A model generated the notes under the pieces. That model made no database searches. It saw nothing but the letters and a program-made list of their open reading frames with translations, and was not told where the DNA came from. This document shows positions 227-5,835 of a stretch of DNA of 5,887 nt, in pieces (the first letter of the stretch is position 1; every line of letters begins with the position of its first letter). The position numbers and the translations under genes are program-made. The stretch lies in assembly GCF_003334815.1 (NCBI RefSeq), contig NZ_QOWO01000070.1; one strand, written 5' to 3'. The stretch is from Escherichia coli. Lineage in GTDB: Bacteria > Pseudomonadota > Gammaproteobacteria > Enterobacterales > Enterobacteriaceae.

Positions 227-1570
227 ATGCACAACTCCAAAATCCGACAAGCTGTACTGGTTGGATGCATGACGCTGAGCGCTAACCTGTGGGCCGAAGC
301 GCAGCCGGTGCAGGCAACGCTGGCTGGGCATGCACTGTTGCCAGTAACATCCGCCGTTTCAACTCCGAAGGATGCGCCGAGCGATCTGCAACAGAGCGGC
401 AAATACACCAGCGGCAAACGCGTCACCGAGCTGGGCAGCGTGGCGGGCAAATCCGCAGATCGTCTGACTGGACTCGGCCTGCCGATCAACGGTCAGCCGT
501 TGCAGGGCCACTCAGGTATCAAACACATGCCCGACGGTACCTACTGGGTGCTGACTGACAACGGCTTCGGCAGCAAAGCCAACTCCCCGGACGCCATGTT
601 GTACCTCAACCACTACAAAATCGACTTCAAAGACGGCACGGTAGTACCGCTGAAGACGCTTTTCCTGCATGATCCGGATAAGAAGGTACCGTTCCACATC
701 ATCAACGAGAGTACCGAACAGCGCTATCTGACCGGCAGCGATTTTGATCCCGAAAGCTTCCAGTTTTCCGACAATGCCTTATGGATCGGTGATGAGTTCG
801 GTCCTTACCTGATCAAGACCGACCTGAACGGCAAGGTGCTGGCGGTGTTCGATACTGAAGTGGATGGAAAGGTGATTAAATCGCCGGACAACCCGACGCT
901 GACCCTACCTGGCGCGCCGGACGGCAAGCAGAATTTCCAGGTTGCGCGTTCCAAAGGCTTTGAAGGCATGGCCATCTCGCCGGACGGCAGTAAGCTGTAT
1001 CCGCTGTTGGAAGGGGCATTGTGGGACGGTGAGCAGTTCGAGAACGTTGGCGGAAAACGCTACCTGCGTATGCTGGAGTTCGACGTCAAACAGCAGGTCT
1101 GGACTGGTCGCAGCTGGCAGTACGTGCTGGAAGACAACCAGAACGCCATCGGCGACTTCAATATGATCGATGACACCCACGGGCTGGTGATCGAGCGCGA
1201 CAACGGCGAAGGCACTACGGATAAAGCCTGCGTCGTCGGTGCGCCGACCAACAACTGTTTCAGTCAAGTAGCCAAGTTCAAACGAGTGTATAAAATCGCT
1301 TTCTCGGACACTAACGTCGGTAAACCTGTCGAAAAACTGAGCTATATCGACCTGATGAATATTCAGGATCCGAACAAGCTGGCACGCAAGCCGCTGAGTG
1401 ACGGTGTGCTGACCTTCCCGTTTGTCACCATCGAGAACGTGGATGTGGTTGACGCGAACCACATTATTGTAGGCAACGATAATAACTTCCCGTTTTCCTC
1501 CAGCCGCTGGCCTAATATGGCGGATGACAACGAGTTTATTCTACTTAATGTGAAGAATTTTCTGAAGTAG
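227..1570 (+). CDS. Sec-secreted phytase-like beta-propeller protein (esterase-like activity of phytase type family), 447 aa; function uncharacterised
   Basis: Long ORF with an N-terminal Sec signal peptide (hydrophobic core LVGCMTLSANLWA followed by EAQ) and a weak RBS (AAGAGA) 8 nt upstream. Repeated motifs (DNGFG, GDEFGP, FEGMAISPDG, ERDNGEG, GNDNNFPF) look like the phytase-like fold. The family call is from memory, not a search. Confidence 0.7.
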   Translation: MHNSKIRQAVLVGCMTLSANLWAEAQPVQATLAGHALLPVTSAVSTPKDAPSDLQQSGKYTSGKRVTELGSVAGKSADRLTGLGLPINGQPLQGHSGIKHMPDGTYWVLTDNGFGSKANSPDAMLYLNHYKIDFKDGTVVPLKTLFLHDPDKKVPFHIINESTEQRYLTGSDFDPESFQFSDNALWIGDEFGPYLIKTDLNGKVLAVFDTEVDGKVIKSPDNPTLTLPGAPDGKQNFQVARSKGFEGMAISPDGSKLYPLLEGALWDGEQFENVGGKRYLRMLEFDVKQQVWTGRSWQYVLEDNQNAIGDFNMIDDTHGLVIERDNGEGTTDKACVVGAPTNNCFSQVAKFKRVYKIAFSDTNVGKPVEKLSYIDLMNIQDPNKLARKPLSDGVLTFPFVTIENVDVVDANHIIVGNDNNFPFSSSRWPNMADDNEFILLNVKNFLK

Positions 1571-1792: not shown

Positions 1793-1826
1793 AAAAAAAC
1801 GCAGGCTAACCGCGCCTGCGTTTTTT
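1793..1826. terminator. Bidirectional rho-independent terminator shared by the convergent phytase-like gene and phoX
   Basis: A perfect 8-bp GC-rich stem (ACGCAGGC at 1799..1806 pairing with GCCTGCGT at 1814..1821) with a 7-nt loop, flanked by an A7 run (1793..1799) and a T6 run (1821..1826). It lies 20 bp downstream of the phoX stop. Confidence 0.8.
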
Positions 1827-1845: not shown

Positions 1846-3825
1846 TCAGGTGCCGATCATACCGCCGTCGGCTTTCACGATAACGACGGTTGAGGAACGC
1901 GGACGACTGGCCTTATCGCCGTCGGGCCAGCTTGATACTGCCGTCGGATGCTGCGGATCGCTCAGCCCTTCGGCTGGCTCGCCAGGGTGCTGGATGTTAA
2001 TAAACAGCGTCCGGTTATCCGGCGTGAACGCGATGCCGGTGATTTCGCAGCCACGCGGGCCGGTCAGGAAGCGGCGAAACTCGTTGGTACCGGGGATCGT
2101 CGCCACCATCTGGTTGTTGCCCATGCCTTCGTAATCTTTACGGTTGATGGTTGATGACGACACGTCGGTCTGGATCCACAGCACGCCGCGGTGATCGAAG
2201 CTCAGGCCGTCGGCGCTGCCGAATTCCGCGCCCTTCATGCTACCTTTGGCTTCCGGTTTGTCAGTATCGGTGCGACCGCCCATCACCAGAATATCCCAGG
2301 CGAACTGCAGCGCGGTCGGGTCGCCGTTCTGCTCCAGCCAGTGAATGATGTGACCGTAAACGTTTTTGCCGCGCGGGTTGGCCGCATCCACCGGCGCTTT
2401 GCCTTCCTTACCGCGATCGCTGTTGTTGGTGAGCGTGCAGTAAACGCTGCCTGTGTGGTATGGATCAACCGCAATCCACTCCGGGCGGTCCATTTTGGTG
2501 GCGCCCACGGCGTCTGCCGCCAGACGGGTTTTAATCAGCAGGTCGCCCTGGTTTTCAAAGCCTTTGCTGGCGTCAAGCCCGTTTTGGCCGAACACCAGCG
2601 GTAGCCACTCGCCTTTGCCGTCATCGTTAAATTTCGCCACATACAGCGTGCCTTTCTCCAGCAGGCGCATGTTGGCTTTGCGATCCCGCGGGTTGAATTT
2701 GCCTTCCGAGACAAATTTATAGATGTATTCGAATTTCTGGTCATCGCCCATATAAACCACAACGCGGTTATCCGGGGCGAGCGTCACCGCCGCGCCTTCG
2801 TGCTTGATGCGGCCAAGCGCGGTGTGCTTGCGCGGCACTGAATGCGGATCGTATGGATCGATTTCCACCACCCAGCCGAAGCGGTTCGGCTCGTTCGGCG
2901 TGACGTCAACGCTGAAACGCTTATCCACTTCGTTCCAGCGGTAAGAGCCGTCGCTGTCGCTGATGCCGTAACGTTTTTCCAGCGGGTTCATCTCCGCTTT
3001 TTTCACGAAAATATCGGACCAGTTCTCTTCGCACGTCAGATAGGTGCCCCACGGCGTAAAACCGTTGGCGCAGTTCTGCATGGTGCCGAGAATGGTTTCG
3101 CCTTTCGGATCGTCAGCCGTTTGCATCAGCGGGTTATGCAGCGCCGGGCCGGTGATTTTCATCGGCGTGTTAACGGTGATGCGGCGCGCGAAAGATGACG
3201 GGCGCACCACTTCCCAGCCCTGGGCCGCTTTTTTTACTTCAATGACCGACACGCCCATTGCGTTCTGTCCTTTCAGCGCTTTATCAGCGCTCCAGTTGGC
3301 ATCGCCATCTTTAAACAGCAGACCGTTATCGATGTATTCATGGTTCATGGCGAGCAGGCCGTGATCGACGCTGTGCCCGCCCTGCGGCAGGCTAAACCAC
3401 GCCATACCGTCGTGGTGCATCCCGGCCTGCGCCGCCTGCTCTTCCGTGGTGTTGCTGCCGTCGGTTTTAAAAACCGGCTGATTCCCGGCAAGCCCGGTGG
3501 CGTCGCCCCATTTGTATAAGGGCTTCGCGATGTAGCCTTCCGGCACGATAACGGTATCTTCCGTGGAAACCGGCAGACTGGTGAAACCGAGCGCCGTCGC
3601 TTTGCCGAGGTTACCGCTTACGCTGGAGACCGCTTTCGCCAGCGCGTTTTCCGGTTTCAGCAGAAACGGGAACGTTGCCGCGGCACCGGCGACCGCGCCT
3701 GTCTGTAACAGGCGGCGGCGCGACAAATAGACTTCCGCCACCTGCGAAAACGCGCGGTTATCACTCGGGTTGCTGGTCTCTTCACTATGCTCACGTTTGA
3801 ATAAAGTTTTTAACGATCTGCCCAT
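1846..3825 (-). CDS. phoX: PhoX-family alkaline phosphatase/phosphodiesterase, Tat-exported, 659 aa
   Basis: N-terminal twin-arginine motif LSRRRLLQTGAVAGAAATFPFL followed by an AxA-type cleavage region (ALAKA). Size and beta-propeller-like composition are typical of PhoX, including a WGTYLTCEENW motif. An RBS (AAGGAAA) lies about 8 nt upstream of the ATG at 3825. Confidence 0.8.
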   Translation of the reverse strand: MGRSLKTLFKREHSEETSNPSDNRAFSQVAEVYLSRRRLLQTGAVAGAAATFPFLLKPENALAKAVSSVSGNLGKATALGFTSLPVSTEDTVIVPEGYIAKPLYKWGDATGLAGNQPVFKTDGSNTTEEQAAQAGMHHDGMAWFSLPQGGHSVDHGLLAMNHEYIDNGLLFKDGDANWSADKALKGQNAMGVSVIEVKKAAQGWEVVRPSSFARRITVNTPMKITGPALHNPLMQTADDPKGETILGTMQNCANGFTPWGTYLTCEENWSDIFVKKAEMNPLEKRYGISDSDGSYRWNEVDKRFSVDVTPNEPNRFGWVVEIDPYDPHSVPRKHTALGRIKHEGAAVTLAPDNRVVVYMGDDQKFEYIYKFVSEGKFNPRDRKANMRLLEKGTLYVAKFNDDGKGEWLPLVFGQNGLDASKGFENQGDLLIKTRLAADAVGATKMDRPEWIAVDPYHTGSVYCTLTNNSDRGKEGKAPVDAANPRGKNVYGHIIHWLEQNGDPTALQFAWDILVMGGRTDTDKPEAKGSMKGAEFGSADGLSFDHRGVLWIQTDVSSSTINRKDYEGMGNNQMVATIPGTNEFRRFLTGPRGCEITGIAFTPDNRTLFINIQHPGEPAEGLSDPQHPTAVSSWPDGDKASRPRSSTVVIVKADGGMIGT

Positions 3826-4642
3826 TGCGGTTTCCTTTCAAAAAATCGATTTCAAGGGGAATCATTTTTATGCACGTGAGTCTACGGAAAGTATGTTACA
3901 GAAATATAATGAGATACAGCGCGTATACGATGAAAATCATCAGGTGTACGGTGTGCGTAAAGTCTGGCATCAGTTGTTACGGGAAGGAATCAGGGTGGCC
4001 AGATGTACAGTGGCGCGCCTCATGGCGGTTATGGAACTTGCCGGTGTTCTCCGGGGTAAAAAGGTCCGCACAACCGTCAGCCGGAAAGCCGTTGCCGCAG
4101 GCGACCGCGTAAACCGTCAGTTCGTGGCAGAACGTCCAGACCTGTTGTGGGTGGCTGATTTTACTTACGTCAGCACATGGCAGGGCTTTGTTTATGTGGC
4201 GTTCATCATTGATGTGTTTGCCGGATACATCGTGGGATGGCAGGTCTCATCGTCCATGGAAACGACATTCGTGCTGGATGCACTGGAGCAGGCGTTGTGG
4301 GCCCGTCGGCCGTCCGGCACAATTCATCACAGCGATAAAGGCACTCAGTATGTATCGCTGGCCTACACGCAGCGGCTTAAGGAAGCCGGATTACTGGCAT
4401 CAACAGGAAGTACTGGTGACTCGTATGACAACGCGATGGCGGAGAGCATCAATGGTCTTTACAAGGCGGAGGTAATACACCGTAAGAGCTGGAAAAACCG
4501 GACAGAAGTGGAGCAGGCCACACTCACGTGGGTGGACTGGTATAACAATCGACGATTGCTGGAAAGGCTGGGCCATACTCCCCCGGCAGAAGCAGAAAAA
4601 GCTTATTATGCTTCTATCGGAAACGATGATCTGGCAGCCTGA
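3770..4642 (+). CDS. IS3-family transposase OrfB (DDE integrase core), 5'-truncated fragment; the first 45 or so codons of this ORF are not IS-derived, so it is probably non-functional
   Basis: DDE-type motifs are present (WVADFTYV, HHSDKGTQYVS, AESINGLYKAEV) and the C-terminus LERLGHTPPAEAEKAYY is typical of IS3-family OrfB. There is no upstream orfA or frameshift window, and the ORF's 5' end overlaps the phoX start on the other strand. Confidence 0.8.
   Translation: MLVSSLCSRLNKVFNDLPIAVSFQKIDFKGNHFYARESTESMLQKYNEIQRVYDENHQVYGVRKVWHQLLREGIRVARCTVARLMAVMELAGVLRGKKVRTTVSRKAVAAGDRVNRQFVAERPDLLWVADFTYVSTWQGFVYVAFIIDVFAGYIVGWQVSSSMETTFVLDALEQALWARRPSGTIHHSDKGTQYVSLAYTQRLKEAGLLASTGSTGDSYDNAMAESINGLYKAEVIHRKSWKNRTEVEQATLTWVDWYNNRRLLERLGHTPPAEAEKAYYASIGNDDLAA
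3864..3901 (-). promoter_or_regulatory. Candidate phoX promoter: -10-like ATAAAAAT with a weak Pho-box-like CTGTAACATACTTTCCGT about 12 bp upstream (on the phoX-sense strand)
   Basis: Position and spacing relative to the phoX ATG are plausible. The proximal half-site matches the consensus poorly. The site lies at the junction with the truncated IS copy. Confidence 0.2.
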
Positions 4643-4684
4643 GTTCACAGATAAAACACTCTCCAGGAAACCCGGGGCGGTTCA
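3905..4684 (+). mobile_element. 5'-truncated IS3-family (IS629/IS1203-like) copy 2: the 3' roughly 60 percent of the element, with IRR but no IRL and no orfA
   Basis: Recognisable OrfB sequence starts around EIQRVYDENHQVYGVRKVW (about 3911) and runs to the terminus ...CGGTTCA at 4684. Upstream of about 3905 the DNA is the phoX 5' region. The left boundary is approximate, give or take about 15 bp. Confidence 0.8.
4660..4684. repeat. Terminal inverted repeat (IRR) of IS629-like copy 2
   Basis: Same terminus as 113..137. Similarity to 1..137 ends exactly after TTCA at 4684. Confidence 0.65.
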
Positions 4685-4705
4685 CAATTTTCTTCAACTG
4701 CAGGA

Positions 4706-4951: not shown

Positions 4952-5122
4952 TTACATTTTCACCATTTTGCCACTGCGGCCCCGGAAGACGAAGATATGC
5001 CCGGAGAACGGGTCATCTTTCAGCGTGTTCTGCACCTTCGAAGCTAGGCCGTTGAAGCCACAACGCATATCTGTGATGCCAGCGATGATCCAGATTCTGG
5101 TACCGGTCGGCAGCGTTATCAT
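4952..5122 (-). CDS. tnpB: IS66-family TnpB (orf2), truncated: 56 aa where about 115 aa is expected
   Basis: My own translation of the minus strand gives MITLPTGTRIWIIAGITDMRCGFNGLASKVQNTLKDDPFSGHIFVFRGRSGKMVKM then a stop, carrying the IS66 TnpB hallmarks (TDMR.GF.GL, DPFSGH.FVFRGR). Its ATG overlaps the upstream ORF's TGA as ATGA, the usual IS66 orf1/orf2 coupling. No frame continues the TnpB sequence beyond 4952. Confidence 0.7.
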   Translation of the reverse strand: MITLPTGTRIWIIAGITDMRCGFNGLASKVQNTLKDDPFSGHIFVFRGRSGKMVKM

Positions 5123-5796
5123 CGGATCCCCCCTTTCATTTCGCGAATGAGCACCCTAAGAAGTTCCGGAGTGAGAGGGGCAAACAGTTTTACCACACCT
5201 GATTTAAGATGCAGCTCACACTGTGGTGAGTCTACGGTAGTGTCACTCTGGCTTTCATCAGACTTATTTCGCCAGAAAGGATTTGTCACCGGTTTGACGG
5301 GGTCAGGAGTCTCAGTGATTGCCACCGGAACGGCCTGGCATTCCTGGAGATCCTCATCATTCAGCAAGCCCTCTTCATACAGTCTTTTCCAGTTAAACAA
5401 CAGATTGTCATTAATATTGTGCTCTCTGGCGATCCGTGCAACGACTGCACCAGGCTGTAATGCCTGTTTTACCAGCCTGATTTTAAATTCACGACTGTAG
5501 GAGGTTCGTCGTTCTTTTCGCCATGTGCTTTCGCTGATTTGAGGATCATCAGGTAATTCCTTCTTTCTGTTGGCATAAAGTATGGCATCGAGTTGGGCGA
5601 CTGAAAGTGATTCAGGTAATGGCCAGGTAATACCGGAGGCATTAAATCGTTGAAAGAGATTATGAATGGTGGAATGACTGAGACCTAACTGCAGGGCGAT
5701 AGCCCGGACAGATAATTGCTCGTCGAATCTTAGACGTAATGCGTCTGGCAAATAAGAGCGAAAGCCGGTGATATCTTTTGCTGTCTGAGAATTCAT
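5119..5796 (-). CDS. tnpA: IS66-family TnpA (orf1)-like HTH protein (C-terminal 130 aa or so) with an N-terminal 90 aa or so resembling an IS21-family IstA HTH; a possible in-frame chimera
   Basis: The C-terminal part (RRTSYSREFKIRLVKQALQPGAVVARIAREHNINDNLLFNWKRLYEEG ... ELHLKSGVVKLFAPLTPELLRVLIREMK) has the IS66 orf1 HTH and C-terminal pattern and is translationally coupled to tnpB. The N-terminal part (LSVRAIALQLGLSHSTIHNLFQRFNASGITWPLPESLSVAQLDAILY) resembles the IstA N-terminus with its WPLP motif. Both calls are from memory. Confidence 0.6.
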   Translation of the reverse strand: MNSQTAKDITGFRSYLPDALRLRFDEQLSVRAIALQLGLSHSTIHNLFQRFNASGITWPLPESLSVAQLDAILYANRKKELPDDPQISESTWRKERRTSYSREFKIRLVKQALQPGAVVARIAREHNINDNLLFNWKRLYEEGLLNDEDLQECQAVPVAITETPDPVKPVTNPFWRNKSDESQSDTTVDSPQCELHLKSGVVKLFAPLTPELLRVLIREMKGGIR

Positions 5797-5810: not shown

Positions 5811-5835
5811 TGAACCGCCCCGGGAATCCTGGAGA
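5811..5835. repeat. Terminal inverted repeat (IRL) of IS629-like copy 3
   Basis: Matches the reverse complement of the right-end termini at 23 of 25 positions. Confidence 0.7.

Follow-up and report, generated by a model that had tools for sequence, protein, structure and literature searches.

A conserved, PhoX-typical n-region in the long twin-arginine signal peptide of an Escherichia coli phosphatase

Some bacterial phosphatases that are exported folded carry long signal peptides, and in a single gene it is not obvious whether such a leader belongs to the protein or to the annotation. The question is raised here by a phoX gene in a 5,887-nucleotide stretch of Escherichia coli DNA (contig NZ_QOWO01000070.1, assembly GCF_003334815.1), called the window below. 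The phoX coding sequence (1846..3825, minus strand) is a 1980-nt open reading frame (ORF) of 659 codons and a stop codon at 1846..1848, and the N terminus of the translated precursor is MGRSLKTLFKREHSEETSNPSDNRAFSQVAEVYLSRRRLLQTG. Ser35 and the three arginine residues that follow it, residues 36-38, are encoded at 3723..3712. The initial annotation noted that the arginine triplet lies 36 residues into the protein with no internal Met before it, and this is what the translated ORF contains: M1 is followed by no other Met before the twin-arginine motif. It left two readings, an extended n-region or a start at a GTG or TTG inside the ORF. Before the arginine triplet the frame offers just two alternative start codons, GTG as codon 29 (3741..3739) and TTG as codon 34 (3726..3724). 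Nor can the ORF begin farther 5', since the ATG is preceded, four codons upstream, by a stop codon in the same frame. The comparisons described below make it very probable that phoX is translated from the ATG at 3825, that its signal for twin-arginine translocation (Tat) is about 63 residues long, and that the long n-region is conserved, coding and typical of PhoX proteins rather than an artefact.

The leader has the three parts expected of a Tat signal. The twin-arginine motif, S35-R-R-R-L-L-Q41 (3703..3723, minus strand), fits the TatP pattern RR.[FGAVML][LITMVF] and has consecutive arginine residues where the n-region meets the h-region, in a sequence of the S/T-R-R-x-F-L-K type; R36 and R37 are invariant in all 98 sequences of the family alignment. 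The h-region, residues 42-56 (TGAVAGAAATFPFLL; 3658..3702, minus strand), is, as read from the sequence, hydrophobic and rich in Ala and Gly, a character that is conserved, and it has the moderate hydrophobicity and the length of at least 12 residues that are looked for in Tat signals. The c-region, K57-PEN-A61-L-A63 (3637..3657, minus strand), ends in an AxA sequence with a predicted signal-peptidase site after A63, and the equivalent site in orthologues is AFA, ALA or AWA. The AxA rule, and the point at which the alignment with the crystallised mature Pseudomonas fluorescens PhoX begins, suggest cleavage after A63. The predicted Tat signal is thus 63 amino acids long, with an n-region of some 34-35 residues before SRRRLLQ. 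The Pfam TAT_signal model (PF10518) matches residues 34-53 weakly (E 0.003, 17.9 bits). Export of other PhoX proteins through this pathway is abolished in tat mutants, for example in Campylobacter jejuni (PMC4148689).

The n-region extension, codons 2-34 (3724..3822, minus strand), is retained in all 120 of the best homologues. These proteins have 650-665 amino acids, the same leader and the arginine pair at residues 33-38, save for a few truncated gene calls. Among 35 orthologues of at least 65% identity, M1, N19, S21, S27, R36 and R37 are invariant, while P4, K10, N23, F26 and S35 are nearly so. The same picture is obtained from the DNA of 80 gamma- and beta-proteobacterial genomic loci with 50-79% identity, which represent Enterobacteriaceae, Neisseriaceae, Moraxella, Pasteurellaceae and many Burkholderiales. 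In about 73 of the 80, a start codon (in most cases ATG) lies 26-36 codons 5' of the arginine pair. Within the 25 codons that precede the pair, at least 11 of them (L014, L016, L023, L026, L034, L039, L045, L046, L064, L065 and L070) contain no second start codon, and in L023, L026 and L034 the other in-frame candidates lie only farther upstream. In loci without an internal start, the long form is therefore the sole route to the Tat signal.

The leader also evolves as a coding sequence. Codon-level selection and initiation signals were compared in 18 Enterobacteriaceae orthologues, in which synonymous sites are near saturation (proportion of synonymous differences, pS, 0.65). Codons 2-34 have a ratio of non-synonymous to synonymous substitution (dN/dS) of 0.13; for codons 2-28, which a start at GTG29 would leave untranslated, it is 0.115. 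The corresponding values are 0.09 for the Tat motif and h-region, 0.34 for the c-region and linker, and 0.09 for the mature enzyme. Mean pairwise differences at the first, second and third codon positions are 0.18, 0.14 and 0.48 for codons 2-34, and 0.167, 0.129 and 0.453 for codons 2-28, so that the third positions of the leader are about three times more variable than the first two. This excess at third positions, together with the low dN/dS, indicates that the constraint acts on the protein and not on the nucleotide sequence, unlike what is expected of an untranslated leader. Conservation of the full extension as codons among orthologues was the outcome that the initial annotation had named as favouring the long form.

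Initiation signals at the first codon are conserved as well. The start codon ATG (3823..3825, minus strand) is aligned with ATG in 13 of the 18 orthologues and with GTG in the other five; the loci with GTG at the conserved codon 1 (L004, L005, L006, L008 and L011, from Leclercia, Pseudescherichia and Escherichia sp. ESNIH1) have it behind AGGAAG or AGGAC. In the window, a Shine-Dalgarno (SD)-like AAGGAA (3832..3837, minus strand) ends 6-7 nt before the ATG and forms a calculated anti-SD duplex of -5.6 kcal/mol. Its counterpart precedes codon 1 at a constant offset, as AGGAAG or AGGAAA in 14 of the 18 orthologues and as AGGAC or GGGAC in the remaining four, while the flanking bases diverge. The internal codons behave differently. 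At codon 29, only 11 of the 18 have GTG and the other seven a non-start Val or Ile codon (GTT, GTA, GTC or ATC), and no SD sequence was found upstream of GTG29 (duplex +1.2 kcal/mol). At codon 34, TTG is limited to the window and a 94%-identical copy from E. coli chromosomes; 12 of the 18 have CTC and one (Phytobacter, L010) has ATG. A start at either internal codon is hence not supported as a conserved feature, while the alternative of an extended n-region is strongly supported by the conserved codons, start and ribosome-binding site. The RefSeq record WP_059259737.1, a ‘PhoX family protein’ with 100% identity to the window protein, has the identical start, which is correct and is not to be shortened. 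Gene callers that choose an ATG or GTG near the arginine pair in other phoX genes (as in P0084 and P0096) probably clip a real, conserved leader.

How unusual is such a leader? Whole Tat signals in the TatP training set average 37 residues, and any extra length is usually in the n-region (PMC1182353). The n-region of about 35 residues is thus longer than is typical of Tat signals generally, as the initial annotation had it; set against the PhoX family it is normal, and ‘unusually long’ was an overstatement. This follows from a survey of 150 representatives of 50%-identity clusters, of which 112 are near full length and have a Tat-like motif: the median number of residues before the arginine pair is 29, at least 20 precede it in 79 of the 112, and an n-region of 25-40 residues is the norm. 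Shorter members retain F-x-[DE]-[VI]-[LI]-x-x-x-[LM]-S-R-R. The conserved long leader is therefore an ordinary feature of PhoX, already annotated as such in RefSeq, and not an annotation error.

Long PhoX signals are already known from the literature. The metagenomic PhoX ‘mAP’ from tidal-flat sediment has a Tat signal of 81 residues whose motif occupies residues 39-45, as established by N-terminal sequencing of both precursor and mature protein after expression in E. coli; the same study reports PhoX signals of 26-76 residues (PMC4335783). The motif of mAP is at nearly the same distance from the N terminus as that of the window PhoX (residues 35-41). As described, mAP differs in having ARRSCPV as its Tat motif and a signal 18 residues longer, and since it was expressed from a pET vector, the sequencing does not bear on its native start. 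The PhoX of Synechococcus sp. PCC 11901, which differs from the window PhoX in being cyanobacterial, has a 57-residue Tat signal with a polar, acidic n-region of 27 residues before the arginine pair (PMC13297417), and the signals of Ramlibacter PhoX proteins are predicted at 31-67 residues (PMC5768637). Much closer to the window protein are the PhoX proteins of Cronobacter, Franconibacter, Enterobacter, Klebsiella, Leclercia, Buttiauxella, Neisseria and Snodgrassella, with 65-97% identity and 650-665 residues. These enterobacterial and Neisseriaceae proteins have the same n-region and the arginine pair at 33-38, and those of Enterobacteriaceae also share the ribosome-binding site and a Pho-box-like element. 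Outside the family, Bacillus subtilis PhoD is likewise a Tat-exported Fe/Ca phosphatase of phosphate starvation with a long signal and n-region, its signal being about 56 residues long with the arginine pair near residue 26. The fold of PhoD, purple-acid-phosphatase-like, is unrelated to that of PhoX.

The mature part of the protein leaves little doubt about its family, and the initial identification as a PhoX enzyme and Tat substrate holds by sequence and by predicted fold. The catalytic β-propeller domain (Pfam PF05787) covers residues 80-615 (1981..3588, minus strand) and is matched over model positions 2-515 of 515 with E 4.3e-167. The AlphaFold2 model of the full precursor has a mean predicted local distance difference test (pLDDT) score of 91. 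In Foldseek this model matches 4a9v and 3zwu with E 1e-74, a template-modelling (TM) score of 0.93 when normalised to the target, a root-mean-square deviation of 2.0 Å and 46-47% identity, in keeping with the six-bladed β-propeller of P. fluorescens PhoX. The latter (PDB 3ZWU, 4A9V, 4ALF and 4AMF), also a PF05787 protein, is the structurally characterised Fe/Ca alkaline phosphatase of the family, and its mature domain aligns with residues 72-658 of the window PhoX (E 9e-168). Since the crystallised constructs do not have the signal peptide, they are silent on the n-region. The fetched sequence sets contain no close relative of P. fluorescens PhoX, the best being 56% identical. Invariant in the 98 family members are one Cys, C252, and many acidic residues (E266, E267, D323, D362, D446, D539 and D554). 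No NCBIfam family matches either PhoX or the product of the neighbouring phytase-like gene at E ≤0.001, so that there is no curated equivalog for comparison. By its sequence and its predicted structure, the window gene is an ordinary, already annotated PhoX alkaline phosphatase.

Within the n-region, conservation is concentrated in a motif of the whole family, N19-x-S21-x-N23-x-x-F26-x-x-V29-(4)-L34-S-R-R. Its core, N19-P-S21-D-N23 (3757..3771, minus strand), includes the invariant N19 and S21, and is followed by F26-S-Q-V29 (3739..3750, minus strand), the start of a predicted helix, in which V29 is encoded by the in-frame GTG. In the 98-sequence alignment, which extends to 37% identity, the information peaks at N19, S21, N23, F26, V/I29, L34, S35, R36, R37 and L40; counted over occupied rows, N19 is present in 69 of 83, S21 in 66 of 83, N23 in 61 of 97, F26 in 77 of 98 and V or I at position 29 in 80 of 97. 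The pattern is that of an N-x-S-x-N turn followed by hydrophobic residues at helical spacing that lead into the arginine pair. In the AlphaFold2 model of the full precursor a helix spans residues 26-47, and the pLDDT is 89 over residues 21-30 and 78 over 31-40; an isolated β-bridge is formed at residue 25, and the flanks are disordered (pLDDT <50). This predicted model gives a hint that the n-region docks on the propeller. In one locus (L056, a metagenome-assembled genome labelled Bordetella parapertussis) an in-frame stop is found about 23 codons in, inside the N-x-S-x-N sequence (SAN*SF), which points to a pseudogene or to an error of assembly.

The notable point of this leader is a polar motif before the Tat motif that purifying selection maintains as strictly as the enzyme, and the question of what it does concerns the whole PhoX family, not the window alone. 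In the likeliest role, a speculative one, the predicted helix through the arginine pair, with its preceding turn, would serve this cargo in particular and make export depend on the folding of the propeller or the loading of its cofactors, by transient docking on the folded domain or through a factor not encoded beside phoX. Alternatively, the motif would keep the enzyme harmless before export. The idea can be put more specifically: N-x-S-x-N-x-x-F-x-x-V would be a PhoX-specific module, a cargo-sensing latch that holds the arginine pair back from TatBC until the enzyme has folded and taken up Fe/Ca, or that keeps the cytoplasmic phosphatase inactive. We consider this rather unlikely and put it forward tentatively. 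Such a latch may dock on the folded propeller or bind an unlinked factor, and would constitute an intramolecular Tat quality-control element that has no dedicated chaperone gene. No description of the motif was found in the literature searched. A PhoX signal moves enhanced yellow fluorescent protein (eYFP) poorly, with 17% exported (PMC13297417). Coupling of export to folding or metal loading would account for such poor export of foreign cargo, which fits a cargo-specific n-region, though other explanations exist.

Several points weigh against these readings, both of the start and of the role of the n-region. In nine of the 112 family representatives no more than 12 residues precede the arginine pair as annotated, which means that the extension is not obligatory for every PhoX; some of the nine may be mis-called starts. 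In this lineage the AGGTGG that precedes TTG34 (3724..3726, minus strand) by 11 nt gives an anti-SD duplex of -5.9 kcal/mol, as good as the -5.6 kcal/mol of ATG1. Since SD strength by itself does not separate the two codons, the case for ATG1 rests on conservation, and its assignment as the start in E. coli and Cronobacter comes from sequence comparison. The N-terminal 78 residues modelled alone already reach pLDDT 77 for residues 21-30 and 74 for residues 31-40, so the gain from the full-length context is modest, and the models lend weak support to the role proposed for the n-region.

A different role for the conserved n-region would be that of a docking site for a dedicated Tat proofreading chaperone, of the TorD/TorA, DmsD/DmsA or NapD/NapA type, which holds the precursor until its Fe/Ca cofactor is assembled. 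A strongly conserved, non-hydrophobic motif immediately 5' of the arginine pair is what such a site might look like, and the helix predicted through the pair, in the full-length precursor as well as in the isolated N terminus, recalls chaperone-bound Tat signals, which are helical through this region, as in NapD-NapA. The poor export of eYFP would also be accommodated. However, the known proofreading chaperones are usually encoded beside their substrate, and clustering of all ORFs of at least 70 amino acids within 3 kb of phoX at 81 loci yielded no neighbour family common to them beyond about nine closely related loci. This speaks against a dedicated, co-encoded partner of the TorD, DmsD or NapD type; nor was a PhoX chaperone found in the literature searched. 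We therefore regard a dedicated chaperone as quite improbable.

Dual initiation would leave the long form from ATG1 as the main product and add a minor, short precursor from TTG34 in this lineage, possibly with different export kinetics. The combination of TTG with an SD-like AGGTGG is confined to the window and the 94%-identical chromosomal copy. An ATG or Met at the position of codon 34 occurs in Phytobacter L010 and in Klebsiella homologues (FMSRRR), and a product beginning MSRRRLLQ would by consensus be a competent Tat signal. Against this, a spacing of 11 nt is above the optimum and TTG is a weak start codon; the AGGTGG is not conserved among orthologues, most of which have CTC at codon 34. 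Moreover, anti-SD matches comparable to that of TTG34 occur by chance at 7-16% of in-frame positions of the coding sequence, the 16% being those that reach -5 kcal/mol or lower. A minor TTG34 product is accordingly very unlikely in our judgement.

That GTG29 or TTG34 is instead the real start, giving a short n-region (MAEVYLSRRR... or MSRRR...) behind 28-33 untranslated codons that are open by chance, is hardly credible: both codons are in frame, TTG34 has its AGGTGG, and some gene callers pick the ATG at the codon-34 position in the Klebsiella lineage (P0084), but the purifying selection on codons 2-28, the replacement of both codons among orthologues, the lack of an SD sequence before GTG29, the many loci with no internal start candidate and the retention of the extension motif down to about 40% identity all stand against it. 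A terminator-like hairpin at 3751..3731 (minus strand), with GTG29 in its loop, is probably due to chance; the 18 orthologues fold differently here, mostly weakly.

Translation from ATG1 would be preceded by transcription from a promoter of the PhoB type. In such promoters an 18-bp Pho box, made of two CTGTCAT-like repeats 11 bp apart, replaces the -35 element and lies about 10 bp before the -10 element. In the window a Pho-box-like element, TCATTATATTTCTGTAAC (3895..3912, minus strand), matches CTGTCATAWAWCTGTCAY at 12 of 18 positions, and elements at the same position in the 18 orthologous loci match at 13-15 of 18. A -10-like hexamer, TAGACT (3879..3884, minus strand), lies 10 bp 3' of it, and, by eye, a TAnAnT-type hexamer has the same spacing in most of the aligned orthologous upstream sequences. 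The σ70 consensus scan did not pick up TAGACT, as expected of a promoter that has no -35 element. Under phosphate starvation, transcription would start from this putative promoter about 47 nt 5' of the ATG. From what is known of the family, the enzyme would then fold and take up its metals in the cytoplasm, be exported by the Tat pathway in the folded, metal-loaded state, and be cleaved after A63. At the other end of the gene, a terminator scan found a terminator-like hairpin followed by a T run (1797..1817, minus strand) just past the phoX stop codon.

The left half-site of the Pho-box-like element is clipped by a 5'-truncated transposase fragment of the insertion sequence (IS) family IS3, IS629-like, which occupies 3911-4685 on the plus strand and ends within it. 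This half-site reads TCATTAT in the window, TTGTTAT in the 94%-identical chromosomal copy and yTGTTAT in orthologues, and phosphate regulation of the plasmid copy of phoX may, judging from these bases, be weakened. The window is 100% identical to the E. coli plasmid NZ_AP045059, in which a 659-residue ‘PhoX family protein’ is annotated with the same start; the 94%-identical copy in some E. coli chromosomes is also annotated with 659 residues. Of 5426 complete E. coli genomes, 99 have a near-full-length phoX, and among named homologues the closest bears the label Cronobacter (97% identity). Only a 112-bp piece of phoX (window 2852-2963, 93-95% identity) is present, on chromosomes and plasmids, in about 390 other complete genomes of E. 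coli; it is annotated ‘alkaline phosphatase | hypothetical protein’ and resembles a widespread remnant of the gene.

In contrast to its enterobacterial orthologues, the window phoX is plasmid-borne in E. coli and flanked by IS629-like elements. Positions 1-138 and 4548-4685 are direct repeats of 98% identity that correspond to the 3' end of one IS3-family element, including its terminal inverted repeat, so that phoX and the phytase-like gene are bracketed in the manner of a composite transposon. The phytase-like gene (227-1570, plus strand) is convergent with phoX and encodes a 447-residue ‘esterase-like activity of phytase family protein’ with a Sec-type N terminus; its 3' end is about 230-250 nt from the hairpin at 1797-1817. 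It is not conserved beside phoX in other genera among the 81 loci. The opposite IS3-type inverted repeat, TGAACCGCCCCGGGAATCCTGGAGA, is found again at 5811-5835, as the start of a further copy. Adjoining the repeat at 5811 is a 225-residue ORF (5119-5796, minus strand) with a match to TnpA, an accessory protein of the IS66 family (E 8e-88); with an IS66 ORF beside an IS3-type repeat, the right third of the window is a mosaic of IS elements.

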